Shown here: positions 4,000 to 63,768 of the stretch, piece by piece | Layout of the letters: each line of letters begins with the position of its first letter | How positions within the stretch are numbered: position 1 is the stretch's first letter | Origin: an uncultured Bacteroidota bacterium | Lineage (GTDB): Bacteria; Bacteroidota; Ignavibacteria; Kryptoniales; JAKASW01 | Direction: 5' to 3' | DNA: 64,000 nucleotides | Assembly (NCBI GenBank): GCA_963768145.1 | Contig: CAVYHK010000025.1 | Location: forward strand, 96,001 to 160,000 | Made by a program: the position numbers and the translations under genes | Notes under the pieces: model-generated | What the model was told of the DNA's origin: nothing | The model's input: only the letters and a program-made list of their open reading frames with translations | Database searches by the model: none

Positions 4000-5424
4000 C
4001 TATTTCAACATCAACATTTTCTTCATCGACACGAATTTCTGTCCGTCATTCCCGACAGCATTGATCCGGTAGAAGTAAACTCCACTCGAAAACTTTTTCA
4101 TGTCAAAAATCTGGTTGTACCTCCCTGCATTCATCGTTCCGTAATTCCATTCCTCAACTCTCTGTCCCAATCCATTATACAACTCAAGCGTAACACTCGA
4201 CGTTTCCTTCAAATCAAATCCAATTGTCGTCGCAGGGTTGAATGGATTCGGATAGTTCTGGTACAAAGCGCAACCCTTCGGAATGTCTACCTTCACCTGT
4301 ATCGGCAAGTAATCCTTTTTCGTCCCATCGGAACTCACACTCTCGACCGTGTACTCATAAGTATGACCATTAACGATATGACAGTCCTTGTATGAGTATT
4401 CTCTTCCGGTTGTAGACGTGCCTAGTCCACGTAAAGAAGGGTCCGATGTGTAACTGACTATCAACGACGGAACTCCCTTCGCAGCGTCCCTCCTAATTAC
4501 GTTGAAACCAAGATTGTTGATTTCCGACTGCGTCTGCCAGGTTAAGACTACTGCCCCGTTTGTGGCGGTCGCCTTGAAGCCGGTAGCCTCAACGGGGAGA
4601 GGATTCTCTGCCGAAGGAGCAGCGCTCACCTCATTGCTGAATCCACTCTCCAATCTCGCACTATCTATTGCCGTCACCTTGAAGTAATATGTCGTGCCGT
4701 TTGTCAGTCCGATCATTATCTTTGTCGTGTCGGTGATGGACGCCGAGGAAGAATCCACGAGCGTTTCGTTGCCCGAAATCGTGCTGTAATAGACACGGTA
4801 TTTCAAAAAATCAGCTTCGGTATTTCTGTTCCATTTGAGGGCGACTTGCCCGTCGGCGGCAGTCGCGACAAGATTCTGTGGTGCCAAAGGAGGCAAATTA
4901 ATGCCGTGATCAGCAGTAAACGCGTGGACGATCATCAGAGACTTGATCGTCGCATCTGTAATCGTCAGCCTACCCTGACTGCTGAGATCAAGGTTGAGTT
5001 TTGTTCCTCCAGTCGCAGCATCGTACATCTGAAAGGAACCACTCCACAGCTTCGTCGAATCCCATGTTATTGTCACAGGGTATCCTGACGAACTTGGTTG
5101 AAACTGCAGCGTCCATACATTCTCTTCGCCTTGAGCACTCAGGGTATCGCGGTAATCGATAGATAGGCCTTCGACACCCGGATCAAGCCAACGGACATCG
5201 AAGGCTCCCGTCGGAGGAAGGGGCGGAAGCTCATACTCTCCCAGACCAACATCGATGCCGGAAGTTGCCCCGTAGAGTTCGCCGAAGCGCACCGTGTCCG
5301 AAACACCACCGTTGTCTGAAAGGGTCAGCTTCAGCGAGCCTGTGGACTGTGCCATGACAGGTTCCATGGTGTAAAATGCCAATGCAACCGTCATCGAAAA
5401 CAACTCGATATAAAGACGTTTCAT
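4000..5424 (-). CDS. Secreted Fn3-domain protein with T9SS C-terminal sorting domain
   Basis: It has an N-terminal signal peptide (..AFYTMEPVMAQS). Its Fn3 module (APQNLVATAADGQVALKWNRNTEADFLKYRVYY..TYYFKVTAID) closely resembles the one in the 2386-aa protein. The C-terminus has LYQNYPNPFNPATTIGFDL..GVYFYRI.., the Por/T9SS CTD signature. Confidence 0.75.
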   Translation of the reverse strand: MKRLYIELFSMTVALAFYTMEPVMAQSTGSLKLTLSDNGGVSDTVRFGELYGATSGIDVGLGEYELPPLPPTGAFDVRWLDPGVEGLSIDYRDTLSAQGEENVWTLQFQPSSSGYPVTITWDSTKLWSGSFQMYDAATGGTKLNLDLSSQGRLTITDATIKSLMIVHAFTADHGINLPPLAPQNLVATAADGQVALKWNRNTEADFLKYRVYYSTISGNETLVDSSSASITDTTKIMIGLTNGTTYYFKVTAIDSARLESGFSNEVSAAPSAENPLPVEATGFKATATNGAVVLTWQTQSEINNLGFNVIRRDAAKGVPSLIVSYTSDPSLRGLGTSTTGREYSYKDCHIVNGHTYEYTVESVSSDGTKKDYLPIQVKVDIPKGCALYQNYPNPFNPATTIGFDLKETSSVTLELYNGLGQRVEEWNYGTMNAGRYNQIFDMKKFSSGVYFYRINAVGNDGQKFVSMKKMLMLK

Positions 5425-46449: not shown

Positions 46450-48183
46450 TATTCAATTGGTTCAGCACCGAATTCATCCTTCAAGTACTTGATTAGTGGA
46501 TCGTCTGCCTCTGAATCAACTGCCCGTTCGGTCGGCAACAATCGTGAAATCGACGGCAACTCGAACTCCAAGGTTTTCTGAATTTATCCTGGATATAATT
46601 TTTGTAAGGCTTGGTCATCCCGACAACCACTTCATTCGGGAGCACCAAGCATAAGCCAACCATTTTTGATCCCAAGCGGTTTCAAGTTTATCAGTTGTGA
46701 CCACACTCCAATTCTCTCCTTCCTAACTGCCTGAAGGAGTTCTTCCCACCTCACGGTGATTTCTTGAAATGAAGATTCATTGCTCTGATTCGGCGCGGGC
46801 GGCTCCTTCCGGGGAGCACTGCAGCTGCTTTTCTTCGGGTCCGATCAGTCATTGGTAGCTTCGAAACCGGCGCGAAAGGCATTCACGCTTGATCCCGTTG
46901 TCAAAGCGCACGGAGTGCCTGTGATCGACCCGCTGAGAACAAAGTCCTCGTTCCCTTACCGATCTGCCGACTGGAATTGCTTTGAGCGGGCTGACGCGGA
47001 AAGTGAACGAGCCTATTGTTCGCCTAAAGAGCTACCAGAGGTCAAGTTTTTTTTTAACTCTTCAATTTGCTGAAGAAGCTCACCAAGTTGACGGATGCTC
47101 CATGATTTACAAGCTGCAGCAGCGTCATCTCAAGCTTTATTCTCGGCTGCGAGACATATTTAATCTGCTGCATGGCTTCGCTTGTGATTTTCAGAAGTCT
47201 AAGAAGATCGAATCTGTCAAATCTGAGAGCCGTTATCCAAGTATCTTTTGCGGTAATCTTCAGATGCTTCGATGAAATCCGACTTTTCCCGTCGTGCCGG
47301 CGACGATAAATTGCGGATATGTTCGGACAGTCCTTCAAGAAAATCCACAGGATCATATCCTCGGGAGATAATCTGTGCCGCAAGTTCCACTGCGCCTTTG
47401 GAATCGTTCTTCTCCATCAAGTCAGTCAGTTTGAAGAAGAGGTCGAGCATCCACAAAGCTCAGCGCATTCGCCACGACTTCATGCTTGATATCATTTCCA
47501 CAAAACGCGGCAACCTGATCGAAAATACTCATCACATCGCGCATCGACCCGTCGCCTTTCTTTGCGATCATCATAAAAGATTCTTCATCAACGGAAATTT
47601 TTTCTTCTTTTGCGATGAAGCGAAGGCGTCGATAATTTTCTCAATCTCGATTCTCTTGAAATCAAATCTCTGACATCGCGTGAGAATCGTCGGAATGACT
47701 TTATGCGGTTCAGTTGTCGCAAGAACAAAAATCGCGTACGATGGAGGCTCTTCAAGAGTTTTCAACAATGCGTTGAAAGCTTCCTTAGTGAGCATATGAA
47801 CTTCATCGATGATGTAGAGCTTGTATTTCAATCGCGAAGGTGAATAACGAACCGATTCGCGCAAGTCTCTGTATCTCATCGATGCCACGATTTGAAGCTC
47901 CGTCAATTTCAATCACGTCCAGACTTCTTCCTTCGGTGATCTCTTTGCAGACATCGCATTCATTGCACGGTTCGCCATCTTTGACGTTCGGGCAGTTTAT
48001 CGCTTTGGCGAATATCCGTGCAGTCGTGGTTTTCCCGACGCCGCTCGGACCGCTGAACAAATATGCATGTGCGATGCGGTTGCGGACAATCGCATTCTTC
48101 ATCGTGACCGTAACATGCTCCTGTGCCGTCACTTCATCAAAGCGCATCGGGCGCCATTTGCGAGCAGTTACAAGATAGCTCAT
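46450..48183 (-). CDS. dnaX: DNA polymerase III subunit gamma/tau; as assembled the frame is broken at least 5 times
   Basis: The N-terminus is [50 protein letters not shown] (Walker A plus zinc module). Next come ..[33 protein letters not shown], then later fragments in other frames (47217..47456, 47054..47383, 46493..46675). My translation finds the true C-terminus ..[17 protein letters not shown] with the stop at 46450-46452. Confidence 0.85.
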
Positions 48184-50587
48184 CTCTTGATCTTGTCATT
48201 AGTGAAGACATGCTTCAATGCGTCTTCGATTCTTCTCGACGGGAACGATCGTAATTCCTTCTTTCAATTTCGCCGGTACTTCAACCAAATCTTTCACATT
48301 CTCCTTCGGGTATCAGAACTTTCTTGATGCCGTATCTTTTAGCTGCAAGCATTTTCTCCACAAGCCCGCCAATCTGCAGGACTTCGCCGTTAAGATTGAT
48401 TTCTCCGGTCATGGCAACATCGGTGCGAAGCAGGTTTTTGCCCGCAGCCGAAATGAGTGCAACTGCCATCGTGAGCCCTGCAGATGGGCCATCTTTGGGA
48501 GTCGCACCCTCCGGGACATGGATGTGAAGTTTCTTTTCCTTTATGAAAGTTCTTATGTAATCCCGAGACGGTTCGCATTTGCGCGCACATAAGTCAACGC
48601 CGCCCGCGCAGATTCCTGCATGACATTGCCGAGCCGGCCGGTTAATTGCACTCTGTCCGGTCCATCCATCAAGATCGCTTCCACATTCAGAATATCGCCT
48701 CCTCCACTTGTCCACGCAAGACCAACAGCTACACCTAGCCGATTCTTCTTGGCGAATTGTCTTGAATGGAATTTCGGCACCCCAAGAAATTCCTCAACTT
48801 TTTTCTCGTCGATCACAATCCGGATGATTTTCTCTCGCTTCCGCATTCTTCTGACCGACAATTTCCCTCGCGATCTTTCTAGCAAATACCGGCGATGGAA
48901 CGCTCAAGATTTCTGACGCCGGCTTCCCACGTGTATTCGCGAATGACTTTCAGCTAAAGCCGAATCTTCAAACTTCGCAAATTTCTCCTCAATGCCATGA
49001 GCTTTTAATTGCTTCGGGATAATATGGCGCTTTGCTATTTCAATTTTGTCAAAATCGAGATAGCCCGGAAGCTCAATGACCTCCATCCTGTCTTCAAGCG
49101 GCTCGGGGAATGTTGTCACGAACATTCGCGGTGGTGATGAACAGAACTTTTGATAGATCATAATCCACTTCCAGATAATGATCCTGGAAAGAATGATTTT
49201 GCTCCGGATCAAGAACCTCAAGCAAGGCGGCCGACGGATCACCATGAAAATCATTAGCCATCTTATCAACTTCGTCCAGAAGCATAACCGGATTGACAAC
49301 GCCGGCCTTCTTCATAGCCTGCAGAATCCTGCCAGGCAGAGAACCCACATAAGTTCTGCGATGTCCCCGAATCTCAGCCTCGTCCCTCATTCCGCCAAGC
49401 GACAGGCGGACGAATTTTCTCCCGAGTGCGCGTGCAATCGATTTCGCCAGCGAGGTTTTGCCGACCCCCGGAGGACCGACAAAGCAGAATATCTGTGACC
49501 GCATTTCTTTCACAAGATTGAGGACCGCAATTTGTTCGACGATGCGTTCCTTCGGCTTTTCAAGCCCGTAATGATCTTCGTCCAGAATGTTCTTTGCATG
49601 CTCGATGTCCAGATTGTCCCGAGTCTTGTCATGCCATGGCACATCAATCAGCCAATCGAGATAATTTCTTAAGACGGTTGCCTCCGGCGAAAAGGGTTGT
49701 GTTCTTTTCAACTTATCAAGCTCATCAACAGCTTTCGCCTTTGCCAGTTCCGGCATATGTGCCTTCTCTATTTTCTCTTTCAAGATCCCAATCTCACCAG
49801 TCGGGCTTTCTTCGCCAAGTTCATCCTGCATTATTCTTACCTGCTCTTGCAGGTAATATTTCCGCTGGTTTTTCTGTATGCTGTCCTGGACCTTGTCGTC
49901 GATCTCCTGTTCAATCTTCAGAATGTTAATTTCCTCTGTCATTATTCTTATCATGTCTTCATATTGCTCGCGAAGGCTCTTTAAGCTGAACAATTCCATT
50001 TTCTCGGGAATCGAAAGATCCAAATTTGACAGGATATAATAAAATTTGCGATCGGGTTGTTCCATATTCTCGAAAGACATGATTGTCTCCGGAGGGATAT
50101 CGCGGCTGTTTCTCACGTAGTCTCGAAATAGTTGAGCAGCGTGTTTCACGTAAGCGTCGAGTTCAATTTCCTTTTTCTGCGACTGAGCATTCATTGAATA
50201 ATCTGCATGGAGAATATGATTCTCCTCGAAAAACTTTTTCACAAACGCCTGAGCGACTCCATCGACAAGAACCTTTAGAAGCCCATTGGGAAGTTTCAGA
50301 ACCTGTAATACTCGTGCTACCGTGCCGACCTGGTAGAGTTCGTCATTTGTCGGATCTTCCAGTGTGCTATCCTTCTGAGCAATCAACAGAACGAATTTGT
50401 GATTCTTCGAGGCATACTCCACAGCTTCTACAGACTGTTCCCTTCCCACAAGAATCGGGAATAGCATATAAGGAAGCACCAATGAATCTCTCAGGGGAAG
50501 AACGGGAAGTTTCTTCGGGATGTCCTCAATATCCATTACTTCTCCGGCTTGATCCATTTCCTTATATTCGTTCAACCTTCCTCCCAT
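48180..50587 (-). CDS. lon: ATP-dependent Lon protease; N-terminal two thirds intact, C-terminal third (48180-49300) broken by many frame changes
   Basis: The ORF 49094..50587 has the LON N-domain ([23 protein letters not shown]) and the AAA+ domain ([17 protein letters not shown]). The fragments 48904..49299, 48553..48885 and 48281..48715 carry ..[15 protein letters not shown].., ..[16 protein letters not shown].., ..[23 protein letters not shown] (catalytic Ser context). My translation gives the C-terminus ..[16 protein letters not shown] with the stop at 48180-48182, overlapping the dnaX ATG. Confidence 0.9.
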
Positions 50588-50941: not shown

Positions 50942-51802
50942 ATGTTCCGTCCTCTTATCAGGATCTTCTCCATTCTGTTCATTCTTATTTCCTCTCTTCG
51001 CGCTCAGGTTTGCATCTCTTTTATAGGCGACTGCACGATCGGCAATGATATCCGCTGGCCGGAGTTCGACAAATCTGTCGCGAAGAAGGGCTACGCATAT
51101 TTCTTTTCGAATGTGAAGAACGTGCTTTCTGCCGACGATTACACTGTTGCGAATCTCGAAACCGCGATAATCGATTCCGGAACCGCTGTCGAGAAGGAGT
51201 ACCGCTTCCGAGGCAAACCGGAATACTTGAACATCCTGAAACAGGGCGGCGTCGAGTGCGTGACAATCGCCAACAATCACACGCACGATTATGGAGATGA
51301 GGGATTTGCCTCAACAAAAAAATATCTGGCACAATACGGAATCGATTTCTTTGGGTACGAAACACATCTTGCCAGGAATATTAAAGGTGTGAAGTTTGCG
51401 TTCATTGGAAACGCTTTTCACCTGGGGCCGAATACAATTGCATATATAAAAGCAATCAGAGATTCAGTTGATTTTATAGTGGTCGTTATGCATTGGGGTG
51501 AGGAAAAACAATACGAACCTGACGAGGAGCAGAAAGCCCTGGCGCGCGAACTGATCAATGCTGGCGCGGATTTGATCGTCGGACATCATCCGCATGTTTT
51601 GCAGCCGATCGAGAAATACAAGGGGAAATATATTGCTTACAGTCTCGGGAACTTTGTTTTCGGCGGGAATAGGAATCCGCACGACAAGAAGACGATGATA
51701 CTCCAGGCGTTCTTCGAAAAGGGGAAACCGGTCACGGTCAAAGAGATCCCATGCAGGATATCGTCTGAATTTTGTCCCATGGTGGTGCGGCGAAAGGATT
51801 GA
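50942..51802 (+). CDS. CapA/PGA_cap family metallophosphatase-like protein
   Basis: FIGDCTIGND.., ANLETAI.., VTIANNHTHDYG.., VVVMHWGEE.., GADLIVGHHPHVLQPIE.., YSLGNFVFGG match the CapA family motif order. Confidence 0.8.
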   Translation: MFRPLIRIFSILFILISSLRAQVCISFIGDCTIGNDIRWPEFDKSVAKKGYAYFFSNVKNVLSADDYTVANLETAIIDSGTAVEKEYRFRGKPEYLNILKQGGVECVTIANNHTHDYGDEGFASTKKYLAQYGIDFFGYETHLARNIKGVKFAFIGNAFHLGPNTIAYIKAIRDSVDFIVVVMHWGEEKQYEPDEEQKALARELINAGADLIVGHHPHVLQPIEKYKGKYIAYSLGNFVFGGNRNPHDKKTMILQAFFEKGKPVTVKEIPCRISSEFCPMVVRRKD

Positions 51803-52189
51803 AGGCTGAAATTTCACCGAATATTTCCGCCACGCTTCCCATGTCGACTCCGTGTGATGAGAAGCCCCTTTATCCTGCTGCAGCGGATTCGGGGAAACAA
51901 CCAGGAACCGGCTATGGCTGAGTGTTCTATGGTTTGCACAGAATTCTTTGTGGGCCCGTCCCGCGACATTCAAGTCAAAGAAAGCAAATCCATACTCCAT
52001 TGATATCCGCATTGTCTGCAAAGAACTGACTTTGAACTTTCAGCTCCTCGTGACTAACTTTTTGCCGAAGACATGCCTTTGGGACAACCCACAAAGAGAA
52101 ATGTTGGCTGTTCGGAAACATCGAGCAACCGAGCTGCATAATTAAAAAACGTGATTCCCGGACACATTAACCGGGAGAAGGAGTTTCAA

Positions 52190-54460
52190 ATGAAGATTCG
52201 AGTGGAAGACGCTCTTCTATACCATTCATCAGGCAGAAAAGGGAAAGTCGAAGTCGTGCCCACAAAACCATGTGTGACACAACGTGATCTGTCACTAGCC
52301 TATACGCCAGGAGTCGCAGAAGTTTGCAGGGCAATCGATAAAGATCCGGATTCGGTTTACGAGTTTACCGCAAAGTCAAATTTGGTCGCCGTGCTTTCCA
52401 ACGGCACGGCAGTGCTCGGGCTTGGAAACATCGGTCCACTGGCAGGCAAGCCTGTCATGGAAGGCAAGGGGGTTTTGTTTAAGAGGTTTGCGGACATCGA
52501 CGTCTTCGACATCGAAATCAATTCAAAGACGCCTGAAGAAATTGTGGCAGTCGCAAAAGCGCTTGAGCCCACCTTCGGTGGGATTAATCTCGAGGATATC
52601 AAAGCACCGGATTGTTTCTACGTGGAAGAAAAATTAAAGGAGACGATGAATATTCCTGTGTTCCATGATGACCAGCATGGTACGGCCATAATCAGCTCTG
52701 CTGCTTTGATGAATGCGCTGGAAATTGTGGGCAAAGATATTTCGAAAGTCAAGATTGTCATCAATGGAGCGGGTGCCGCAGCGATCGCGTGCACAAAACT
52801 TTACATTAGACTCGGCGCTAAGATAGAGAACGTATATATGTGCGATTCCAAAGGGCTCATTTACAAAGGAAGACCGATCGACATGAACCCTTACAAGGAA
52901 CAATTCGCGCAGCAGACAAACCTTCGAACTCTTTCCCAGGTAATCGCCGGCGCGGATGTGTTTGTCGGACTTTCCGTGGCAAATGTCGTGACAAAAGATA
53001 TGATTTGCTCGATGGCAAAAGATCCGGTAGTCTTCGCGATGGCGAATCCAGATCCAGAAATAACGTATGAAGACGCCACCGCCTGCCGGGCGGATCTCAT
53101 TATGGCGACCGGCCGCAGCGATTATCCGAACCAGGTGAACAACGTACTCGGCTTCCCATTCATTTTTAGAGGAGCACTCGACGTTCGCGCTCGTACTATT
53201 AACGAGGAAATGAAGATCGCCGCAGTGAAAGCACTCGCAAGCCTTGCAAAAGAGCCGGTCCCCGACTCCGTTAAGAGGGCCTACGGCGGACTAGAGTTCG
53301 AATTTGGGAGAGATTACATTATTCCAAAACCTTTCGATCCAAGAGTGATAACATGGGTCGCTCCAGGAGTCGCAAAGGCGGCAATCCAGACCGGGGTCGC
53401 AAGATTGCAGATCGATGACTGGGAAAAGTATGTCTTCCAACTGGAAGAGAGGATGGGGATAACAAGAAGCGTGGTGAGAACTGCAATTGTGAAATCCCAG
53501 CATAGCGGCATGCGGATAGTATTTCCCGAAGGCGAAGAGCCGAAGATACTTTACGCGGCACAGATGATCCTCGATGAAGAGATTGCCAAACCGGTTCTTC
53601 TCGGCAGGAAGTCTCATATTGAGATGAAGGCTCACGAAATGAAGATTGATATTGAAGGAATAGAAATAATCGACCCGGAGCATTTCGAAAAAGCCGAGCA
53701 ATACATCGAGGAACTTTTCAGAATGCGGCAGAGAAAGGGATTCACACGATCCCGGGCAGCGAGGTATATGGAGAGAGCCAACTATCTGGGCGCTATGATG
53801 GTACACATGGGCGATGCCGACGGACTCGTGTCTGGATTGACTCAGACCTACCCAAGCACAATCAAGCCCGCATTACAGGTGATAGGAATCGCTGAAGGAA
53901 GAGACCGGGTCGCAGGGCTTTACATTATAATGACAAAGCGGGACTCTTATTTCTTCGCTGACACCACCGTGAATATTGATCCCACGGCCGAGGAACTCGC
54001 GGAGATTGCAATCATGACCGCCGAAGTTGTAAAGCGATTCAACATTACACCGAAGATTGCCATGCTTTCGTTCAGCACATTCGGGAGCACGCGACTTCCC
54101 CAATCAATCAAAGTTCAGAAAGCAGTAGAGATTGTGCACAAGCTGGATCCTGACCTGATAGTTGACGGCGAAATACAGTCGGACATTGCGCTCTCGCCGG
54201 ACGTTATCCAGGAGATTTATCCATTCTCAAGCCTAAAAGGTGGGGCGAATACTTTTATCTTCCCGAATCTAGACGCCGGAAATATCGCCTACAAGCTCAT
54301 GGGAAAAATCGGCGGCGCCGCCTTACTCGGACCAATCCTGATGGGAATGAAAAAACCGATTCATGTTCTTCAACAAGGATGCGACGTGGAAGCAATCGTC
54401 AATATCGCAGCAGTGTGCGCGGTCGAAGCTCTCGACAGAAAGAAAGGAAAGGTAAATTAG
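52190..54460 (+). CDS. maeB: NADP-dependent malic enzyme with C-terminal phosphotransacetylase-like domain
   Basis: The evidence is ..[22 protein letters not shown].., [20 protein letters not shown], then a PTA-like C-terminal half. I set the start at the ATG at 52190, preceded by GGAGAAGGAG; the track start is 52151. Confidence 0.9.
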
Positions 54461-56053
54461 ATGATTCTCCATCGCTTTCTTCTCGCAGTTTGTTTGTTGG
54501 GCACCATTGCGCTTGGAGGCTCACGCAAAACGACAAACCGTTCAGAGGTGCAGACGGTCTCAAGAGTTGATTACGAAGCAGCGGGCGTAGAGGCATTGCG
54601 GCATTTCAACATCGCGCATGTGCGATATGCTCTGGATTATCTTGCCTCTGATTCACTTGAAGGCCGAGAAACAGCCGAACCGGGACAAGAACGGGCAGCG
54701 GATTTCATAGCGAAGCGATTCAAACAGCTTGGTCTGAAACCGTTGGGCGATGATGGTACATACCTCCAGCAATATTCCGTCAAAATTCATTCCATCAGCG
54801 ATTCTTCGTTCATCGAAGCAGATGGGAAACACTTCCGTAACAACACAGACTTCTTCGTCTTGCCTTTCGGCGCCGGAGACACGACTGTAGTCTCAACGGC
54901 CGTGTTCGCAGGATATGGCTTTGAAAACAGTACATACTCCGACTATTCTGGAATTGACGTGAGAGGAAAAATCGTACTGCTTCTGGCAGGCAACCCTCCG
55001 TTTGCAGATACGAATGATATCATGATCAAGACGAAATTGTACAAGCGAACGAATGCTGCGAAGCATGGCGCGGCAGCAGTACTCCTCGTCGCAAGAGGAG
55101 GAGACACGGAGTTTTCAAAGACCCGGCAGCACTATAACTCCTTGTTTGGCAATAACATTATGACTCTGGATACCGGCACGAAAGAAACAAGGATGCCAAC
55201 CATGATGCAGTTGGTCTACGTCAAACCTGAGATCGCAAACGAACTTTTGAAAAGTCGAGGAACTGACATAGAGCATATCACTCAGAGGATAGACTCATCA
55301 AAAACTCCGGCATCTTTGCAGCTTGGCAGCATAACCGCCAGGGTAAACCTTGTCTCAGAATCCCGCCGGGCACAAAATGTCGTCGGAATGTTAGAAGGAA
55401 CTTCGCTGAAAAATGAATACGTGGTTTATTCCGCACATTATGATCATCTCGGCAAGACACCGGAGGGTGTTGTCTACCATGGCGCAGACGACAACGCATC
55501 CGGCACAAGCACTGTAATCGGCATCGCGGAGACTTACTCGGAGTCAAAAATAAGACCTAAAAGAAGCATAATTTTTTTGACGGTCTCGGGAGAGGAAAAA
55601 GGTCTTCTCGGCTCCGAATATTTCACTTCCCATCCTCCGGTGCCGATCAAAGACATAGTAACTGATCTGAACACCGATATGGACGGCAGAATCGACACAT
55701 CGTATGTAAATCGCGACAGTAATTATGTCTTCGTGATCGGCAGCAAACGGCTCAGCTCGCAGCTGGATTCAATGCTCGTCCTTGCGGATAGCCAATCGGT
55801 CAAAATCAAATTAGACTATTCGTTTGACTCTGCCAACGATCCGAACCAATTCTATTATCGCAGTGATCATTACAATTTTGCCAAGAGGAATATTCCCGTT
55901 GTTTTCTTTTTCGACGGCAATATCCCGGAATACCATAAACCAACAGATACGAGCGACAAGATAGATTTCCCCATTCTTGAAGAAAGAGCCAAGTTGATTT
56001 TCATGACGGGCTGGAAAGTCTCAAACCTAGATTGGCGATTGCAATTGAACTGA
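54461..56053 (+). CDS. M28 family zinc aminopeptidase with PA domain
   Basis: It has a signal peptide. The motifs are ..SAHYDHLG..GADDNASGTSTVIGIAE..FLTVSGEEKGLLGSEYF..SDHYNFAKRNIPVVFFF, the M28 metal-ligand motif series. Confidence 0.85.
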   Translation: MILHRFLLAVCLLGTIALGGSRKTTNRSEVQTVSRVDYEAAGVEALRHFNIAHVRYALDYLASDSLEGRETAEPGQERAADFIAKRFKQLGLKPLGDDGTYLQQYSVKIHSISDSSFIEADGKHFRNNTDFFVLPFGAGDTTVVSTAVFAGYGFENSTYSDYSGIDVRGKIVLLLAGNPPFADTNDIMIKTKLYKRTNAAKHGAAAVLLVARGGDTEFSKTRQHYNSLFGNNIMTLDTGTKETRMPTMMQLVYVKPEIANELLKSRGTDIEHITQRIDSSKTPASLQLGSITARVNLVSESRRAQNVVGMLEGTSLKNEYVVYSAHYDHLGKTPEGVVYHGADDNASGTSTVIGIAETYSESKIRPKRSIIFLTVSGEEKGLLGSEYFTSHPPVPIKDIVTDLNTDMDGRIDTSYVNRDSNYVFVIGSKRLSSQLDSMLVLADSQSVKIKLDYSFDSANDPNQFYYRSDHYNFAKRNIPVVFFFDGNIPEYHKPTDTSDKIDFPILEERAKLIFMTGWKVSNLDWRLQLN

Positions 56054-56401
56054 CAGTTGCCGCGTTCTAATCTATCTTAGGGCATTGTGATCTCAAGCGG
56101 CTCCAGATGCGAGAGCCGTCATCCCAATGAGATATAAGGCACGGAGGATCGTGTGTCGACATTTCCGTTGTCGGTTTCTCCGTTTGTGAGGGGAAATCTT
56201 CTTGCCAAGCCGATTGCTAACACATTCACAGAGAAGATGGTAGTTGTGCCGCAGGGACAGTAATCAATACTGCCGTCGCAAGTCTGCTCTTAAAAAAAAA
56301 TCCAAAATGTACGACGCCTCAAAAAGGGGTGCGTCCAATTTCGGAAATTTTAATCTTTTGGATTTGAATTCGTCCGCGACTCTGAAGCCGAGGAGTGAAT
56401 T

Positions 56402-57004
56402 CTATTGAGCAGGCAGCTCCTTGGATTGAAACACGCGCGATTTAAGTCTCGTAATCTCGCGCTCTTTGGTTTCCAACTGGTTGTACAGATCCACAAGATG
56501 GTCATAGAACTGGCTTTCGAGAACTCTCACTTGTGAGACATCATCGAAATGGAATATTATTTCAGAACTTGTCCCCTGAAGGTAATACGCCTTGACTTTG
56601 AAGTACTTGTCAAGGTCCTTCTGCTTAAGAGTCCCAATCCCTTCTCCCTGTTCTTTGCACTCACTAACTACCGTATCGAATCCCGTTGAATCCTCAGGCT
56701 GCAAGAATTCTTCTACATCCAGACGTTTCCCGCTCTCCAGCTTCAACGGCAGCACCTCATGCGCAAATTGATTTGCGTAGATCAAGTTTAATTCACAGTC
56801 GGTGACGACAAGCGGGATTCTCACCGTCTCAAAAAGTCTGTAGAAATCTGATGTAATTGTAAAGTTTGCCACGATCACTTCACGTGCATCTATTATGCCG
56901 TCAAAATAGCCGAAAGCGAGTGGAATGCAAGCTGTACCTCTTTCAGGCAGCCGGCATGTTACAGCAAAGTAAATTTCAGTTACAATTATTTCACGGACCC
57001 GCAC
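56402..57004 (-). CDS. Hypothetical cytoplasmic protein, PAS-like fold plus C-terminal coiled coil
   Basis: ..LFETVRIPLVVTDCELNLIYANQFAHEVL.. resembles a PAS core, and the tail ..LVDLYNQLETKEREITRLKSRV looks coiled-coil. The start is uncertain. Weak call. Confidence 0.35.
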   Translation of the reverse strand: MRVREIIVTEIYFAVTCRLPERGTACIPLAFGYFDGIIDAREVIVANFTITSDFYRLFETVRIPLVVTDCELNLIYANQFAHEVLPLKLESGKRLDVEEFLQPEDSTGFDTVVSECKEQGEGIGTLKQKDLDKYFKVKAYYLQGTSSEIIFHFDDVSQVRVLESQFYDHLVDLYNQLETKEREITRLKSRVFQSKELPAQ

Positions 57005-57081
57005 TTTTAGAGAAAGGCCGCAAGGGACAGGAACTCCTTACGCGAGTTACATTAATTCGACCCTTGAGTCTTGCGGCGTGA

Positions 57082-57423
57082 TCAGTTTCCAAGGTAAACA
57101 ATGCTAACCTTCGAGACACCGGCAAGTTCTTTTAAGGTTAGAACTTCACCCGATTCCTGACTCAAGTGATTCGGAGCCGACGTCTTCGGCTGCCCGAAAA
57201 AATCCAAAATGACAGCGACATTGCCAGAGGTGTGGAGAGCTATTGCACCACCACCCGCCTGATTTGTCAAGAAGATACCCGAATCATGATCAGTTGATGT
57301 GACAACAATTGCTGGCGGTGCGATTACCGTCAGTGTTATCTTTGCTGTCGCGGTTACCACCTGTTCTTCAGACGTCGAAACGCAAATCAACGATCCGAAA
57401 ACAGGAAGTAGGACCAACGACAT
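57082..57423 (-). CDS. Small secreted beta-rich protein (113 aa), possible minor fibre subunit
   Basis: The internal Met at 57421-57423 is preceded by GAGGAG. The signal-like N-terminus is MSLVLLPVFGSLICVSTSEEQ, followed by ..KITLTVIAPPAIVVTS... The long track ORF (to 57720) has an implausible N-terminus. Confidence 0.4.
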   Translation of the reverse strand: MSLVLLPVFGSLICVSTSEEQVVTATAKITLTVIAPPAIVVTSTDHDSGIFLTNQAGGGAIALHTSGNVAVILDFFGQPKTSAPNHLSQESGEVLTLKELAGVSKVSIVYLGN

Positions 57424-58135
57424 GCTGAGTCTTCTCCTCAATACGTCCACCCGCAAGTTTAACAAGACTAAGTCCAAGTAGGTTCCTGCGATCGAAGCAA
57501 TAATGGAGTGATTCAAGCATTCGTACGGAGAACGCTCGGCATCCGGATTTCCGACATCCATCGTTAGCCAAGAAAAGAGATTCACGGAAGAAGAAGAAAT
57601 GCTCGGGCAAACGCGACACGTGTTTGGCGAAGCAAACCGAAGAGGACCCAGCACCCTGATGTGCATTGCTCCCCATAGACTCGTGGGGGGAAATTCAAAA
57701 GGAAGAACCCGTGCCCCCACAAGAAAACATCAGGGTAGCTCCTGCGGAGTTATTGCTTTATGGGCTGTTTGGATTCTTATTCCGTTCGCCTCAACCCGCG
57801 AAGCACGTTACGCCGTCATGCCAAAGTGACTTGACCTGACGCGCAAAGTTCAGGGGTTGTGCTGTGTCAGGATTTCAAGATTCGTTGGTAGGATCTGCTA
57901 TGTCGTTAGAAAGACATGTAAACTTGAAAGCTCAACAAGAGAACCGTTGCCTTTTCCCTGCGTAAGCTCTTGGCTTCGCCGCAAATTTCTCACCGGTTCC
58001 TCGATGAATAGAAGCATCAATCCGCAATGCCGATTTTTCTTGGGTAGGCATCAACGCAACAGGGACTGGCGAGATTCCGTTCCACCACGGTTTATATATT
58101 GGGTGTCCCATTGCGGGAGCCCGAGATTCTTTGTC

Positions 58136-61083
58136 CTAAGGCAAAATACGTTTCCCCACGCTGTCCATCATGAAAGAATGGGTATACTGGAATTTACTGA
58201 GAAACAGAGTCAGCTTCTCCATGGCGTTCTCTATCGTCTCGATCGTATCGGATTGAACCAGATATAGCTTCGAACTCTCATTCAAAAAAACACTCAGTTT
58301 CTCTCCAGTCTCTTTTCTTGCCTTTGCTGCAAATTTCTCTGCGCTTCGACGGCCAGGGAAAGCATTGATCTGGATTACAAACTTTTCTTTGTTCGGAGTC
58401 ACCGGAGCGGGGGATGGCGAGATATTTATTTCAGGCGGCTTTTCAGGAAACTGACCGGCTGTAGCAATGGTAACCTTGGATTTCACATCTCGCAACAGGA
58501 TTTGCAGACCTTCCACGTAGTCGCCGCTCTTTGTCGGTCTCACCTCGAAGGTCAACACGGCAGGGTCAGCAACTATCCCCAGCATGGATAGCTGGCTTGA
58601 GTCCACATAGGCAATATACTTTCCGGGAGGCATCCCCATATAATAGAAAGTCCCATCACTGAAGATTACCACCGATTTCTGAAAATCGGCGGAGATGGTT
58701 CTAATTTCAAGTGTCAATCCGGGAATTGCCGTTGCGGTCTTACCTTCTATTTTCAAAACAGTGCCGTCTACGATTCCCCCCGCAAAAAATGGTATATCTA
58801 TCGGTTTATAAGAATTCGGATCCGTGATAAAAGAAAAGGACCTTATCTTGGGGATCAACAACGGATTCCGGATTGAAGCTAGATCGATATCAGCGCTGTA
58901 CTGTGTGTATGGAAGGAGGTTCCATTCTCTTGCAATTCCATCACCCGACACTTCTGACGATACCGCCTGCCTCAAAGTCACTGTACCACCTTTAATAACT
59001 TCATCGCCGCTGTCACAGATTCCGTTGTTGTCATTGTCAACGTACATTCTCATGGACGCCGCTGAATGCCCTACCCATTCGAGGTTGTTGAAGACAAAAC
59101 GGTCATATTCCTTGTCGTAGCCTATTGAGCCGGAAAGATTTTCGGTGAACCATGCCTCTCCGTTCTGTACTTGAGCGTTGCTCGTAGAACGCGTGGATGG
59201 TAAGTCCGCCACTATCTGAAGACTCAATACGGAAAATCTGTTTACGAAATCTCGCTCCACAGCAACCGCAACCCTGACATATTGATGGACATTTTTCGAA
59301 AGCTCGAACCTTATATCATCAAGCGAATTCTTGAGAGCACCATATCTCATCGTGGCATTCAGGAGAGCACCGTTCAGAAAATCGAAATCTCCCCGAGAGA
59401 ATAGCAATGAATACAAAATATTAGCCGTTAGTCCATAGTTCCTGAAGACGGAGCCCTCGCCGTAGTCAAGAATTGATGTCTGATAACCGATTGATGTATT
59501 GATTTGACCAAAACTGGAATTGAAGAAGGCAGAGTAGCTGAACGATGTTTGACCACCGACATATTCCTGCCAGATTGCAGAAGTCCTCACATTGAAGGAG
59601 CTGGTCAGCAAGGAAAGCGGCACAAAAATGTCCGCCTGAGCATCCTCAAGTTTATTACTTGGGTTGTAGAGCAAGTTCTTCTGGTAATGAGCATATTCGA
59701 CATCGAAAGACGCCTGAGATGGATAAAGGGCATTGAATGTAGACCGGTAGAATGCAGAAGGTGCAGCATTAAGACTCACCATGTATTCAGAGCCAATTCT
59801 CAGGGAGAGCGCATTGTAGAAAAGAGGTTTTTGGAAAAGGGGATCATCAACATAATCAACACCGATTTTTTCTGTAAGCCAGTCTGCAACGCCTCCCGCC
59901 GCCTCGGCAGAGAGGAAGTTATCATTTGTGTTGTTCAGTTTACCTCCTCCAACCGAATATGTGAATTGTCCGGTGGGTACAAAGGTGAACGGGATCTGCA
60001 GCCTTCGGTCGGATTCAATCACTTCGCCGCTCGGTCCATAGTACTTTAGCTGGACAAACGAAGTGCCATAAACGAGAGGGATCATAAAATGGGCGTAGCC
60101 AGCAGTGTCGGCTTTTGAGTAGCCCACAAGCTGTCCGTTGAGGTAAAGCTCCACATCCCAATTAGGATTCGTTTTCGCATCAACAGCATATTTACTGAAC
60201 ATCGTTCTCACGGTAGTAGGCTCGTTCGAGATCTGAGCGCCGCGAAAGCCATATTGCGTCAGCCCGTTCGAAAAAAGGTTGCCCAGCCCCGCATAACTGA
60301 TGTAGTCGGTCGAATCAAAAACATATTTCCAACTTAGATCGCTCGAATAGAGTCCGGAATTATGTCGAGAAATGTTCCCGAAGACCGTGCCTTCAGCCTC
60401 TCCGCCGAGTATTTCTCCACCACCCGTCAGGTTATAATTATATTCCGATTGACCAGCTTCACCAAAGCCGCTTAGCGAATAGTCGAGCACGCCACCATTC
60501 AAAAGGGACCGATCACGCCGATAGACGAGCGGCGCCTGCAAGAATGAACCCTGCGGAGTGGTAATCAAATAATTCCGTCGGGTTTCTCTCTGATATTCCG
60601 TGACAATCGGAAGTTCTGTTTCCGTCAAGAGCGACAGAGCTAACGAACTGAAATCGACCGAGAAGTTTAAATTGAAAATCTTATTAAACAAGGATGGCAG
60701 GACATAAAAGTCCAATTTACCAATGATGGCCTGGCTGCTGTCGAACTCTATTTCTCTATCGCCTAACCGAGCAACATGTTTCGCGAAGTTTATTTCATAG
60801 AGATTGTCCGGCTTAATGAAGAAACCACTGAGTGTTGAGTCTTTCATATTGATTGACCCGTCTATATGAAGCTCTTTGAAGACCGTGCTAATTGGGATAT
60901 AGGCGGAATCGTTTTCGTAAATAGCGCTGATTATGGTATTTACAATTCCGCTATAATTAAAAGAGAGGTATATTTCTTGCGACTGATCAGAAGGTGTTTG
61001 CCCCTCGACCTCCGCCGCAGAGACAAGGCTTATGACAAGTATACAGCTCCAAAAAATTCTCGAATACAGATTTCCTGCTCCAT
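58136..61083 (-). CDS. Usher-sized (about 980 aa) outer-membrane beta-rich protein with C-terminal SdrD-B-like, CarboxypepD_reg-like and SPOR-like domains; frameshift in the homopolymer at 61051-61056
   Basis: The track ORF starts at 60847, but the same frame stays open upstream and encodes a signal peptide (..IFWSCILVISLVSAAEVEGQTPSDQ). The only ATG (61081-61083, MEQEICIREFF) is one base out of frame across a T6 run on the coding strand. The C-terminus has ..MYVDNDNNGICDSGDEV.. (SdrD-B-like), ..DGTFYYMGMPPGKYIAYV.. (CarboxypepD_reg-like), and ..FVIQINAFPGRRSAEKFAAKARKETGEKLSVFLNESSKLYLVQS.. (SPOR-like). Confidence 0.5.
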
Positions 61084-61138
61084 CCTAAGTTCTTTAGAAC
61101 TCACAATTGTAAGCTGTCAGTGCGGCGTCAAGAAGGTT

Positions 61139-61960
61139 TCACTGGACGGAAAAGTTTATAGTCTTTTCCACCGCAGGCGTTTTCAACAGGTCGTCTTGCG
61201 AGATATCGGTTCTCTCCGACGAAAGCTTGATGTCTGCAGTATATGAACCTTCGGGTAACTTAGAAAGTGGAACAGCAATCTTGAAAGCCATGTTGTCCCG
61301 ATAGATCGCTATAACTTCTTCTTCGCTGTCCATTTTGTTGCCTGCTTTGTCCTCAACCACTGCAGAAATCTTCCCGAAGAAAGGAGAATTCCCTCCATGA
61401 GTCACCTGCGCCAGGAAATTCATCGAGGTTGAGTCCTGCTTGACTTCAATATTGGGCAGATCGACGCTCGTCAGGACACTCCCTTTCTTGTAAATGATAG
61501 TCGTGACCTGTTCGAGCACAAATGTAATATTTGCTGTGATTCCAGTCTTTACCGTGTCGATCGTTTTTGCCTGTGGAGTTGAACTTGTCACGAGCCTCGT
61601 CCAATACTCTCCATCCGACAAATTCGCCGGCGGCGCCACAAGCAATCGAACAACCTGCTGCTGATTGGGATTGACTATGAACTTTTGCGGAAATCCTCTG
61701 ACCCATTGCTGACACGAATGCTTCTCAGCCATTAGACTGTCGTCGTATTGCATTCTAATGTTTCCTGACGAGTCCGACTCGGGAAAGCCAAATCTGAATG
61801 AAACAGAGATTTCCTGAGGTGTGTTCGAACGATTCATTACTACGAACGTTCCGAATCTGGACTGGTCACTCATAAACAGAATTGTCGGAGCCACAATTAC
61901 TTGTGCCTGAGTCAATGAGGAGACCAGCAAAACTGTCGCGAAGATTATGATTTTTTTCAT
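61139..61960 (-). CDS. Periplasmic PapD-like pilus chaperone candidate
   Basis: It has a signal peptide, then VIVAPTILFMSDQSRFGTFVVMNRSNTPQEISVSF.., which has the PapD-type pattern (strand A, then a conserved basic residue, then '..v.N.s..p'). It is about 250 aa, consistent with two Ig-like halves. Its position between the pilin-like genes and the usher-sized gene also fits. Confidence 0.5.
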   Translation of the reverse strand: MKKIIIFATVLLVSSLTQAQVIVAPTILFMSDQSRFGTFVVMNRSNTPQEISVSFRFGFPESDSSGNIRMQYDDSLMAEKHSCQQWVRGFPQKFIVNPNQQQVVRLLVAPPANLSDGEYWTRLVTSSTPQAKTIDTVKTGITANITFVLEQVTTIIYKKGSVLTSVDLPNIEVKQDSTSMNFLAQVTHGGNSPFFGKISAVVEDKAGNKMDSEEEVIAIYRDNMAFKIAVPLSKLPEGSYTADIKLSSERTDISQDDLLKTPAVEKTINFSVQ

Positions 61961-62229
61961 GGCTGTAATTTAATGAATAAAAGATTCTATCTCAATTGTC
62001 CAATAGGTTATTTCCAGCGAAATTGTGCCACTGCAATTGCCGGCGGGCTGATTTTTAACAAATGCCGCAATGCTTCGTTCAAGCCAGAAGCAACAAATGC
62101 GTGTACTAGTCAAGGTCACCGTTGAGCCAAACAAGACCGACGTTGAGCCCGCCTGCTTCCCTGAGGAACTGTCGCGAAGCGGCATCCTGTCCGACAGTTT
62201 AACTCACGCAGAGCAAGAAGCCTTCGCCG

Positions 62230-62264
62230 AAAAAAAAGAGAAGGCTCAGCACTGCTAAGCCTTC
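62230..62264 (-). terminator. Rho-independent terminator/attenuator between the pilin-like genes and the assembly genes
   Basis: The minus strand is GAAGGCT-TAGCAGTGCTG-AGCCTTC followed by TCTTTTTTTT. It lies about 70 nt after the stop of the gene at 62332. Confidence 0.65.
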
Positions 62265-62331
62265 CTTTGTCTCCATTACCTTTGCCGCGCACTGGATCAT
62301 GCAGGCTTGTCCAACAGGACATCTCAAGTCA

Positions 62332-62847
62332 TTAGTAGGCTACTTGAAGAGTGTAAGTGCCATCCCACTCGCCAGGTGTGGCATCACTACTTACTGTCAC
62401 CGCGCCACCCACGAACACCCATGCTTCACCGGTTGCTGACAATGTCAGATTCGACGCTGCCGATTGGGTGCCGCTTTGGTTGTCGTTCGTGGTGTTGTAA
62501 ATAGGCGACCCTGGGGTGAACGTCACCGATCCTACCTCAGTTCCGGTCTTCAGAGTAAGATTATTAGGAGTGGTCCAGGTAAGGGTCAGTGTAGCATCAT
62601 CATTTCCCTTCACATCAAACTCGCCATATTTAGCAGGCGCAGCGTCATTTGAATTTATCGTTTTTGAATTACCCTGCACCAAGATTCCAAAAGCCAGATC
62701 CTGAACAGGTGCGACAGACACAGACGCCCATACAATTGTGCTTATATTCACACCGTTACTTGCGCTAGACCCGGTTTGGCCAGATTGTGCGAATGACATC
62801 GCAGCAAGACCAAGAATCATCGCTACGACTAACATTAACTTTTTCAT
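62332..62847 (-). CDS. DUF4402-type secreted pilin-like protein (SCPU/Csu-pilin-like)
   Basis: The signal peptide is MKKLMLVVAMILGLAAMSFAQ. It has ..DLAFGILV.. and the C-terminal signature GEWDGTYTLQVAY* (G-x-[YW]-x-G-T-Y-T-x-Q-V-x-Y at the very end). The start was chosen at the internal Met. Confidence 0.6.
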   Translation of the reverse strand: MKKLMLVVAMILGLAAMSFAQSGQTGSSASNGVNISTIVWASVSVAPVQDLAFGILVQGNSKTINSNDAAPAKYGEFDVKGNDDATLTLTWTTPNNLTLKTGTEVGSVTFTPGSPIYNTTNDNQSGTQSAASNLTLSATGEAWVFVGGAVTVSSDATPGEWDGTYTLQVAY

Positions 62848-62929
62848 GATTTTTCTCCATTTTAAATTTGTTAAGAAATTTCGTCCTCCTGATTGTCGGA
62901 CGGCTGTCAAAAAACTCTTATTCATCTTA

Positions 62930-63442
62930 TCAGTAGTTTACTTGTATGGTATATGTACCGGTGTATTTTCCCGAAGCGAGATCCGGAAGCGGGTTGTCGT
63001 TGTTTATGTGACCACCGAGCCACAGAAAATAATTGCCGCTGGCAGGACTCAGTGTCTCGCTGATTGTACCGAGAGACAAGGTCCCGGAACTTCCCTGATC
63101 ATTTGCCTGGTTCCCATTTACCGACGGAGTGAATGGAACCATGCTCGAGCTTAAGGAAAGGTTCACTGATGCCGGCAATGCAATGGTCACAGCCGTGTTC
63201 GGCTCACCCGCAATTGTAAACAGTGGGATGCTTGAGGCAGTCTTAGGATCTACAGCAGGAACAGGAAATCCGGGATAAGCAACTCCGAAATCCAACGTTC
63301 CGGTTTCTGTTATACTAAGTGCCTGTTCTACAGTGATCGAAATCTGCAATGACGCATCAGCACTGCTTTGACCAGATGCGGGCAAGGCAAGCGGGAGAAG
63401 TACCAAAACCAAGAAGAACAATCTCTTCAAGAGCGATTCCAT
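62930..63442 (-). CDS. DUF4402-type secreted pilin-like protein, paralog
   Basis: The signal peptide is ..LFFLVLVLLPLALPASGQ. It has ..TLDFGVAY.. and the C-terminus SGKYTGTYTIQVNY*. It lies 5 nt upstream of the paralog. Confidence 0.6.
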   Translation of the reverse strand: MESLLKRLFFLVLVLLPLALPASGQSSADASLQISITVEQALSITETGTLDFGVAYPGFPVPAVDPKTASSIPLFTIAGEPNTAVTIALPASVNLSLSSSMVPFTPSVNGNQANDQGSSGTLSLGTISETLSPASGNYFLWLGGHINNDNPLPDLASGKYTGTYTIQVNY

Positions 63443-63768
63443 TCTCAAAAGATTCATAAACACAAACCGGTCTAGCCGGTAAGTTTTCATTCCGAAGTAT
63501 CTCAATATCACGCTCTTCATTGTCACTTCTAATATGTCAAGCTGCGTGCCAAAGAAGAGATGCAGAAAGCTAGAAATCTAAGGGTTTTCAGTTTCCAGGA
63601 TGGGCAGGATTACCAATCCGTAATGGGCGGAAGGGAGAAAGTAACACTCGGAAAACGAAATGTGGACAGCTTGATTTGAATGGTCTTGGAGCTTTGGAGG
63701 GAATCAGCGAACCTCTGACCTTTCACTCATCGCTTTCCGGTTTTCAATTTATTATGATCGACCCCACC

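Follow-up and report, generated by a model that had tools for sequence, protein, structure and literature searches.

A probable, highly divergent chaperone-usher fibre-assembly locus with DUF4402 subunits in an uncultured Kryptoniales bacterium

We analysed a cluster of five genes in a 64,000-nucleotide stretch of DNA, the window in what follows, from an uncultured Bacteroidota bacterium of the Kryptoniales (assembly GCA_963768145.1, contig CAVYHK010000025.1, positions 96,001 to 160,000). The five open reading frames (ORFs) lie between positions 57082 and 63526 on the minus strand and, as originally predicted, all exist and run in one direction. They encode, in this order, two small secreted subunits (A and B), a periplasmic protein of 273 amino acids (aa), a large outer-membrane protein and a further small secreted protein (gene E), with a terminator-like hairpin between the subunit genes and the rest. 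An independent Logan assembly (L001) agrees with the window over positions 51583–61769, with 99.98% identity and zero gaps, indicating that the machinery genes are not assembly artefacts.

Subunit A (62930–63442, minus strand; 170 aa from the ATG at 63442) and subunit B (62332–62847, minus strand; 171 aa) are pilin-like proteins of the DUF4402 family, and they are 36% identical to each other. Subunit A, recognized by Pfam and by our family alignment A3, carries a signal peptide and, at its N-terminus, a strand in which hydrophobic residues alternate, together with the motifs LDFG and FLWLGG and the C-terminal sequence GKYTGTYTIQVNY. Subunit B, also recognized by Pfam, has a signal peptide similar to that of the first gene in related clusters; the hairpin directly follows it, and it is likely the major subunit. 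The C-terminal motif reported earlier for the two proteins is exact: directly before the stop codon, subunit A ends in SGKYTGTYTIQVNY and subunit B in PGEWDGTYTLQVAY, the C-terminus of the latter reading GEWDGTYTLQVAY. Across alignment A3, the signal peptide and the alternating-hydrophobic N-terminal strand are common to the subunits. An FG pair, mostly as L-x-FG, is invariant, and the alignment further contains an [FY]-x-W-L-G-G motif and the C-terminus G-x-Y-x-G-T-x-T-x-x-V-x-Y.

Both subunits score above the Pfam gathering cut-off for DUF4402 (25.2 bits): subunit A at 39.2 bits (E = 1.3e-9, or 3.2e-10 without the signal peptide) and subunit B at 31.1 bits (E = 4.2e-7). The family assignment of the original prediction is thus upheld, under the accession PF14352 and not PF13505. 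Its statement that DUF4402 includes the Csu pilins is incorrect, as these belong to SCPU (PF05229). Among 14 subunits tested with Pfam, 12 contain DUF4402 and one gives a sub-threshold SCPU match (E = 0.043, 14.6 bits with the cut-off at 22.4); SCPU matches are weak (E = 0.04–0.1) and give the link between the two families little support. A tblastn search of a plasmid collection with a strong DUF4402 member returned no match. Single-sequence and profile searches of PDB sequences with the subunits gave chance matches only, and searches of PDB sequences with the chaperone and the usher described below likewise returned chance matches, such as PET hydrolase and NOMO.

The pilins are hypervariable. 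Compared with the closely related locus L090, the window subunits (62332–63442, against 4537–5741 in L090) are only 27–39% identical in amino acid sequence and give no DNA alignment. In the same genome comparison, identity reaches 96% for the chaperones and 88.6% for the flanking DNA. Variable pilins beside a conserved chaperone and conserved flanks are the pattern expected of surface-exposed, diversifying proteins, which suggests diversifying selection or cassette replacement of surface-exposed subunits.

The 273-aa protein (61139–61960, minus strand) begins with the signal peptide MKKIIIFATVLLVSSLTQA, followed by Q. Its AlphaFold model, built on a 31-sequence alignment (mean predicted local distance difference test, pLDDT, 88.4), consists of two beta-sandwich domains of the immunoglobulin (Ig) type. 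The PapD-like fold suspected earlier is borne out by Foldseek, which matches the model with probability 1.0 and E-values of 4e-9 to 1e-7 to EcpB, CsuC, Caf1M, FimC and PapD. Dozens of chaperone-usher (CU) chaperones in the PDB are found in this way, including EcpB (4e-9), CsuC (8e-9), CupB2, SafB and CfaA. On the evidence of AlphaFold, Foldseek and hhalign we describe the protein as a periplasmic PapD-like chaperone.

The functional residues of this chaperone have candidate counterparts in CsuC. The family profile was compared with the authentic CsuC sequence from an annotated A. baumannii csu operon, and invariant columns of our family were taken from alignment A1. In the hhalign alignment, which is local and weak, P91, a family-invariant residue at the strand D1 kink, pairs with Pro59 of CsuC, and R122, a family-invariant candidate carboxylate anchor, pairs with Arg89. 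The sequence ANLSDG pairs with ANLPDG, the candidate G1 donor strand residues I145/F147/L149 with Val110/Phe112/Met114, and the hinge Y157-x-K159-G160 with YGKG. In CsuC, Pro59 is the sole residue invariant in all CU chaperones, Arg89 is the carboxylate anchor typical of the archaic and alternative, non-classical, classes, and Val110, Phe112 and Met114 are the G1 donor residues (PMC4654587). P91 also pairs with Pro60 of EcpB in hhalign. Strand A1 (QVIVAPTILF) contains no Arg. The alignment to CsuC stops before domain 2, also in global mode, leaving the domain 2 partners Tyr196 and Arg174 unaligned, and hhalign returned no alignment between FimC and the chaperone family.

Downstream of the chaperone gene lies the gene for the large protein (58136–61069, minus strand), which has a signal peptide and is about 977 aa long if translation starts at the CTG at 61069. 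AlphaFold, Foldseek and hhalign all identify it as an outer-membrane usher. In the AlphaFold model (pLDDT 83.7), an alpha/beta N-terminal domain (residues 1–125; 60623–60997) is followed by a 24-strand barrel (59087–60529) into which a plug is inserted (residues 266–335; 59993–60202). The barrel with plug had been predicted, and the model shows the arrangement in detail: six strands over residues 166–257, a six-strand insert at 266–335, and a further 18 strands over 345–628. When the model was searched against the PDB with Foldseek, the best 19 matches were all FimD or PapC, with E-values of 1.7e-30 to 9e-9, and the first unrelated protein appeared at 5e-8. These matches include the isolated translocation domains 2vqi, 3ohn and 3fip, and the full-length FimD alignments span about 900 columns.

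Profile comparisons with hhalign give the same identification and point to a particular relative. A 53-member usher family profile (A4) matches CsuD with 95.9% probability (E = 6.4e-9) over 505 columns that cover the plug, the barrel and the C-terminal domains and reach CsuD residue 791 of 832; profile A2 matches CsuD with 93.5%. The usher family matches FimD with 21.8% and 7.9%, in an alignment that covers the strand-1, plug and strand-7 region and contains the motif pair NGGVLDYSLSG/NAGLLNYNFSG and FRGAQ, and profile A2 matches EcpC with 4.3%. A full-length homologue, P0179, which is 35% identical to the window usher at 89% coverage, is recognized by the Pfam Usher model itself (43.2 bits against a cut-off of 27.1, E = 3e-11).

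Beyond the barrel, the model contains a beta-sandwich resembling usher C-terminal domain 1 (residues 645–705; 58883–59065), which carries a calcium-type DNDNNGxxDxGD motif, and a second, CarboxypepD_reg-like sandwich resembling C-terminal domain 2 (residues 714–837; 58487–58858). A Pro-rich disordered linker (residues 840–869; 58391–58480) then leads to a probable SPOR domain (residues 873–945; 58163–58381), which is seen in the AlphaFold model and weakly in Pfam. The original prediction had called this C-terminal domain set atypical. That description does not hold for the SdrD_B-like and CarboxypepD_reg-like sandwiches, which align with the C-terminal domains of CsuD and are the family version of the usher C-terminal domains; it does hold for the linker and the SPOR module, which are additions. 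The SPOR domain of the window usher scores 19.3 bits for PF05036, against a cut-off of 21 (E = 1.4e-3). The model of this module (pLDDT about 90) has strands at 873–880, 901–906, 911–916 and 942–945 and helices at 883–897 and 922–935. In homologues the domain is strong; most carry PF05036, and P0179 matches it with E = 1.7e-16.

In Pfam, the window usher shows weak SPOR, SdrD_B and CarboxypepD_reg matches only. Among 53 usher representatives, Pfam detects CarboxypepD_reg in 32, SdrD_B in 30, SPOR in five, and TPR, LysM and Usher in one each, so that the Usher model (PF00577) finds about 2% of the sampled family members. The extreme C-terminus of the family is modular: SPOR repeats, OmpA, LysM and YbgF-like TPR interchange (P0169, P0183–P0186 and members of A4), with OmpA carried by P0169. 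All of the interchangeable modules are peptidoglycan- or Tol-Pal-associated, which suggests that tethering to the cell wall is the selected property.

The window usher carries one SPOR domain, compared with two or three in relatives, and is about 980 aa long against 1032–1190 aa in homologues. A decayed duplicate of the linker and the start of the SPOR domain extends across and just past the usher stop codon (57950–58156, minus strand), where tblastn with the C-terminus of homologue P0123 aligns residues 51–119 at E = 2.6e-8. The gap of about 690 bp between the usher gene and gene E (57451–58135) contains this degenerate duplicate and no conserved gene.

The subunits, chaperone and usher occur together in related loci. 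We collected relatives by scanning one genome per GTDB species for a chaperone motif, which gave 139 confirmed matches, of which 80 loci were kept. The majority of these come from Gemmatimonadota, and the others from Kryptoniota, Ignavibacteriota, Balneolales, Zixibacteria, Eisenbacteria, GN15, Kapaibacterium and Chitinophagales; chaperone and usher homologues occur in Candidatus Kryptoniota, in metagenome-assembled genomes (MAGs) labelled 'Bacteroidetes bacterium', in Balneolaceae and in other lineages. Profiles of the three components were then searched against all ORFs of 89 loci. Subunits, chaperone and usher are present together in 84 of them, across several phyla, so the gene set is co-conserved, as a CU reading of the operon predicts. 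In 88 of the 89 loci the chaperone is directly followed by an usher-like ORF, and in 85 DUF4402 ORFs lie upstream of it; the Pfam-annotated neighbourhoods agree with these counts. Each cluster carries two to six different subunits. The family is also large: a search of 1.84 billion proteins with the usher profile gives 2,817 representatives at 50% identity (E ≤ 1e-30), and the best 150 of these are all full length.

Gene E (57082–57441, minus strand) was identified through locus conservation and jackhmmer. It encodes a small secreted pilin-like protein of about 113–119 aa that ends in VSIVYLGN. A small secreted protein had been predicted as the last gene, starting at 57720. The protein exists, and its start lies near 57441 (TTG) or 57423 (ATG); conservation does not extend into the upstream part of the 212-aa ORF. 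Homologues, such as L007_117 and L005_146, are found directly after the usher in 24 loci. Gene E has zero Pfam matches; jackhmmer ties it to the DUF4402 ORFs. Its place behind the usher gene is that of CsuE in the csu operon, and it is probably a minor subunit.

Relatives of the window locus encode a further, two-domain DUF4402 subunit of about 300 aa directly before the chaperone, which may be a tip or adhesin subunit. In the window this gene is reduced to a decayed 3' remnant (61973–62203, minus strand). The 77 codons that are left have no signal peptide, GG is changed to ER, and the stop codon is lost. The remnant matches the DUF4402 profile A3 with E = 1e-5 and aligns to the last 60 residues, ending in ITY, of the two-domain genes of L005 (6214–7098) and L007 (5830–6759). 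The two-domain subunit is gone in the lineage of the window and in L090, and L090–L092 have the same reduced layout as the window at 88.6% DNA identity.

Between the pilin genes and the machinery genes, stem computation confirms the strong hairpin and T-run that had been noticed after the subunits. This intrinsic-terminator-like element (62229–62265, minus strand; GGAAGGCTTAGCAGTGCTGAGCCTTCT with a run of eight T) has a 12-bp stem with six G-C pairs, read from 62265 to 62239 on the minus strand, followed by CTTTTTTTT. A homologous hairpin stands after the equivalent, major-type pilin gene, the first subunit gene there, in about 18 related loci, including L007 (5623–5650), L010 (6040–6069), L012 (4681–4712), L016 (6869–6897), L022 (4901–4930), L027 (5362–5391) and others. 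The stems differ by compensatory changes, for example GAAGGCTTAGC/GCTAAGCCTTC in one and AAAGGCCTGGC/GCCAGGCCTTT in another, indicating selection on the hairpin structure and supporting a role in the ratio of pilin to machinery. Judging from its sequence and conservation, the hairpin probably attenuates transcription, such that pilin mRNA would exceed that of chaperone and usher. The intergenic gaps contain no RNA family known to Rfam.

The start of the usher gene (61049–61083, minus strand) is unusual, as seen from its sequence and from comparison across loci. The gene reaches upstream of its first ATG (60847) and stays in frame to about 61069. In this region the homologues have a signal peptide and the sequence QEIYLSFNYSG, which are encoded in frame in the window. 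Neither there nor in at least 13 related species does an ATG, GTG or TTG precede the usher signal peptide, and an in-frame stop codon lies just upstream. What is conserved at the start is the element GGAG-N6-ATCTG. In the window it comprises GGAG at 61081–61078, ATC at 61071 and an in-frame CTG at 61069, with a run of six T at 61056–61051 and an out-of-frame ATG at 61083. The ATC is in frame in most loci (11 others), which suggests initiation there, whereas in the window, L090, L007 and L010 a spacer one nucleotide shorter and a conserved run of six or seven T shift the frame, and the CTG is in frame. The same region is found at 7677–7720 in L007, 7877–7920 in L010, 6880–6945 in L090, and near 7900 in L013, L015, L017, L019 and L023.

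Among the four genomes with the short spacer, the changes between the ATC and the T-run (TAT/TAC, TCG/TCA) are synonymous in the usher frame, whereas read in the other frame they would alter the amino acid (I to T, R to Q). A CTG start is therefore favoured over a programmed -1 frameshift on the T6/T7 run, which we regard as less likely. We infer that the usher initiates weakly at a near-cognate codon, which would keep usher levels low. A sequencing error was considered and rejected: the independent assembly is identical at this site, and the arrangement recurs in L090–L092, L007 and L010.

Several genes around the cluster deserve mention. Downstream, a PAS-like cytoplasmic protein, about 157 aa long and ending in a coiled coil (56402–56872, minus strand), was found by jackhmmer and Pfam. 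Its match to PAS_8 (E = 0.003) is under the cut-off, and its position downstream of the cluster is kept in 18 loci by jackhmmer; it may be a regulator of the operon or a mere neighbour. The genes for Lon protease and DnaX (47571–50587, minus strand) are broken over several frames in the window, whereas Lon of L007 is intact at 795 aa. This points to indel errors or local decay in that part of the assembly. Features of the window that depend on single bases need independent support. Two large secreted proteins (4000–5424 and 35332–42492, minus strand) carry Por_Secre_tail, the C-terminal sorting domain of type IX secretion, which confirms that the organism has type IX cargo. Near them are further large surface or secreted proteins: an S8 peptidase with dockerin, a cohesin/DUF1573 protein and a caspase-like peptidase.

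Some related loci have additional genes. In L004 (2236–7347), the chaperone and a subunit are separated by an inserted GBD_T9SS_assoc protein of 1703 aa; in the Balneolaceae locus L002 (11100–15945), FliG-like, MotA/ExbB and MotB-OmpA-SPOR genes directly follow the usher; and in L089 (7001–14769), from a Chitinophagales MAG, two subunit-chaperone-usher clusters stand in tandem.

Based on the folds, the homology of usher and chaperone and the co-conservation of the genes, which support the chaperone-usher reading first proposed for this operon, we suggest with good confidence that the locus encodes a complete and strongly diverged CU system for fibre assembly, its closest known relatives being the archaic (sigma) systems, Csu among them. 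Sec would export subunits A and B as well as the small protein E. In the periplasm, the 273-aa chaperone would capture each subunit by inserting its G1 strand (I145/F147/L149) into an incomplete Ig-like fold, with R122 anchoring the carboxylate of the subunit's C-terminal tyrosine. The chaperone-subunit complexes would dock on the usher N-terminal domain, polymerization would proceed by strand exchange, the N-terminal strand of each following subunit replacing that of the chaperone, and the fibre would exit through the 24-strand barrel after the plug moves aside. The SPOR module at the usher C-terminus may tether the machine to peptidoglycan. At the level of expression, the hairpin after subunit B would raise the ratio of pilin to machinery transcript, and the weak, non-canonical start codon would hold usher levels low. 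We infer donor-strand complementation and exchange from sequence patterns, namely the alternating-hydrophobic N-terminal strand and conserved C-terminal Tyr of the subunits and a conserved, alternating G1 strand in the chaperone. Tethering to peptidoglycan, the roles in regulation and the fibre as product are likewise proposals.

A number of observations weigh against this interpretation. The chaperone has no significant Pfam or NCBIfam match (Pfam PapD_N reaches only E = 0.029) and, even with the 31-sequence profile, no PDB sequence match, and its hhalign match to CsuC is weak, with 8% probability and E = 0.004. TM-scores are modest (0.4–0.6), and the best Foldseek match of the chaperone is not a CU chaperone; it is the WxL-interacting protein of Enterococcus, a Gram-positive bacterium, which is the only non-CU protein interleaved among the CU chaperones in the Foldseek list. 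The window usher matches none of Usher, PapC_N and PapC_C in Pfam even at E ≤ 10, and has no NCBIfam or PDB sequence match. The DUF4402 profile does not match SCPU pilins significantly (hhalign E = 0.04 for CsuA/B, 0.029 for CsuA and 0.003 for CsuB). All three of these alignments cover the same N-terminal region, with L-x-FG paired in CsuA and CsuB, and DUF4402 is, at the level of profiles, probably a distant relative of the SCPU pilins rather than a member. The locus also shows decay: the two-domain subunit is lost, SPOR repeats are fewer, and the usher lacks a canonical start codon. Finally, all loci come from MAGs or metagenomes, and the system is known from genes alone.

The signs of decay raise the question whether the family is a genuine CU system of which this genome keeps only a non-functional relic. 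The two-domain subunit is down to a 77-codon remnant, one SPOR domain stands where relatives have two or three, with a decayed duplicate past the usher stop codon, no ATG, GTG or TTG precedes the usher signal peptide, and Lon and DnaX are fragmented elsewhere in the window. However, A, B, the chaperone, the usher of about 980 codons and E are all intact ORFs with the family-invariant residues. L090–L092 keep the same reduced layout and start arrangement at 88.6% DNA identity, again with intact ORFs; the missing canonical start is common to at least 14 species with intact ushers; and upstream of the T-run the usher frame has undergone synonymous or conservative substitutions. We consider a relic quite improbable.

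It is also unlikely, in our judgement, that CU-type machinery at this locus makes something other than a long pilus. Such a product could be a short polyadhesin, a coat resembling a capsule, or a layer in the coat of a spore or cyst, as has been proposed for the spore coat protein U systems of Myxococcus. The subunit family here is neither SCPU nor classical fimbrial, two to six different subunits occur per cluster, the usher is tied to peptidoglycan-binding modules, and the product is known from genes alone and not from morphology, all of which would suit such a structure. Against it, the closest relatives, CsuD and CsuC, build thin pili (PMC9452303), and a major subunit followed by a terminator, together with minor subunits, is typical of a pilus operon. 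The CU resemblance might even be coincidental, the large protein being an unrelated, peptidoglycan-anchored porin or transporter and the 273-aa protein a generic periplasmic protein with two Ig domains; two-Ig folds are common, the best Foldseek match of the chaperone is the WxL-interacting protein, and Pfam shows just SPOR, SdrD_B and CarboxypepD_reg in the large protein. This we regard as very improbable and largely refuted already by the usher-specific topology, with ushers alone among the 19 best matches and E-values down to 1e-30, by the 95.9% match to CsuD across plug, barrel and C-terminal domains, by the recognition of homologue P0179 as a Pfam Usher, and by the fact that in 84 of 89 loci the three gene types stand strictly side by side.

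If the locus is a CU system, DUF4402, a domain of unknown function, is given a concrete and testable role as the pilin of a CU fibre, and the pathway is extended to phyla outside its quoted distribution. A broader proposal, for which we would give slightly less than even chances, is that these loci form a deep, unrecognized and widespread CU clade, sister to or basal in the archaic class, with DUF4402 pilins and peptidoglycan-tethered ushers whose SPOR, OmpA, LysM and TPR modules are interchangeable. If this is true, DUF4402 gains a function, CU pili reach phyla thought to use different kinds of pilus, and an usher design anchored in the cell wall comes to light. A literature search found no mention of DUF4402 or PF14352, no work pairing ushers with SPOR domains, and nothing relevant on CU systems in the carrier phyla. 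The carriers are mostly uncultured bacteria of soil, sediment and hot springs, about whose adhesion and biofilms little is known, and thousands of family members are labelled 'SPOR domain-containing protein' or 'hypothetical', which leaves an annotation gap. The peptidoglycan-tethered usher and the conserved non-canonical start offer leads on anchoring and on the control of stoichiometry, both unreported for CU systems.

Among known systems, we considered the Type V (Bacteroidota FimA/Mfa) pili and rejected them, as the subunits lack a lipoprotein signal and the machinery bears no relation to that of Type V pili. With the alternative pili (E. coli Ecp, CFA/I) the locus shares features of the chaperone: EcpB is among the best structural matches (E = 4e-9), P91 corresponds to EcpB Pro60, and both proteins have an E-x-aromatic-x-R sequence (E118-Y-W-T-R122 here, E-R-Y-Y-R(89) in EcpB). 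In contrast, among the three classes it is EcpC that the usher matches least well (4.3%), and the subunit family is different. The classical type 1 and P pili of E. coli (Fim and Pap) have the same usher architecture, with an N-terminal domain, a 24-strand barrel, a plug after strand 6 and two C-terminal domains. They also share the local usher motifs named above, the two-domain chaperone fold and a stem-loop after the major pilin gene. They differ in that FimD matches by hhalign at 8–22% only, FimC does not match, no Arg8/Lys112-type anchor is present here, and the pilins are unrelated to the Fimbrial family (PF00419).

The archaic systems, A. baumannii Csu (CsuA/B-A-B-C-D-E) and P. aeruginosa CupE, have the same gene order of subunits, chaperone, usher and a further subunit. 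The usher profile is closest to CsuD (95.9%), and the chaperone shares, in an alignment of 8% probability, the positions of Pro59, Arg89, the ANLPDG loop, the G1 donor residues and the YxKG hinge; as in Csu, strand A1 has no counterpart of the classical Arg8/Lys112 pair. CsuA/B (PDB 7zl4) has the same layout as the window subunits, with a donor strand, LNFG and a C-terminal aromatic residue, and ends in GDYKDTLLVTVNF (DTLLVTVNF). The differences are also clear. The window subunits are DUF4402 (PF14352) rather than SCPU (PF05229), the Pfam Usher and PapD models miss the window proteins, and the usher adds a linker and a peptidoglycan-binding module (SPOR in the window; in relatives TPR, OmpA or LysM). 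Behind the usher the window encodes a tiny subunit (about 90 aa when mature), whereas CsuE is a two-domain adhesin. None of the host groups (Kryptoniota, Ignavibacteriota, Balneolales, Gemmatimonadota and Zixibacteria) belongs to the quoted range of the archaic systems, given in PMC4654587 as Proteobacteria, Cyanobacteria and Deinococcus-Thermus. By pairwise profile scores the usher is closest to the sigma usher CsuD; it may belong to the sigma class or to a sister clade outside it. The system thus appears homologous to the archaic CU pilus while failing to share one of its defining features, the SCPU subunits, and because the matches to FimD and EcpC are much weaker than that to CsuD, we take the archaic class to be its nearest known relative.

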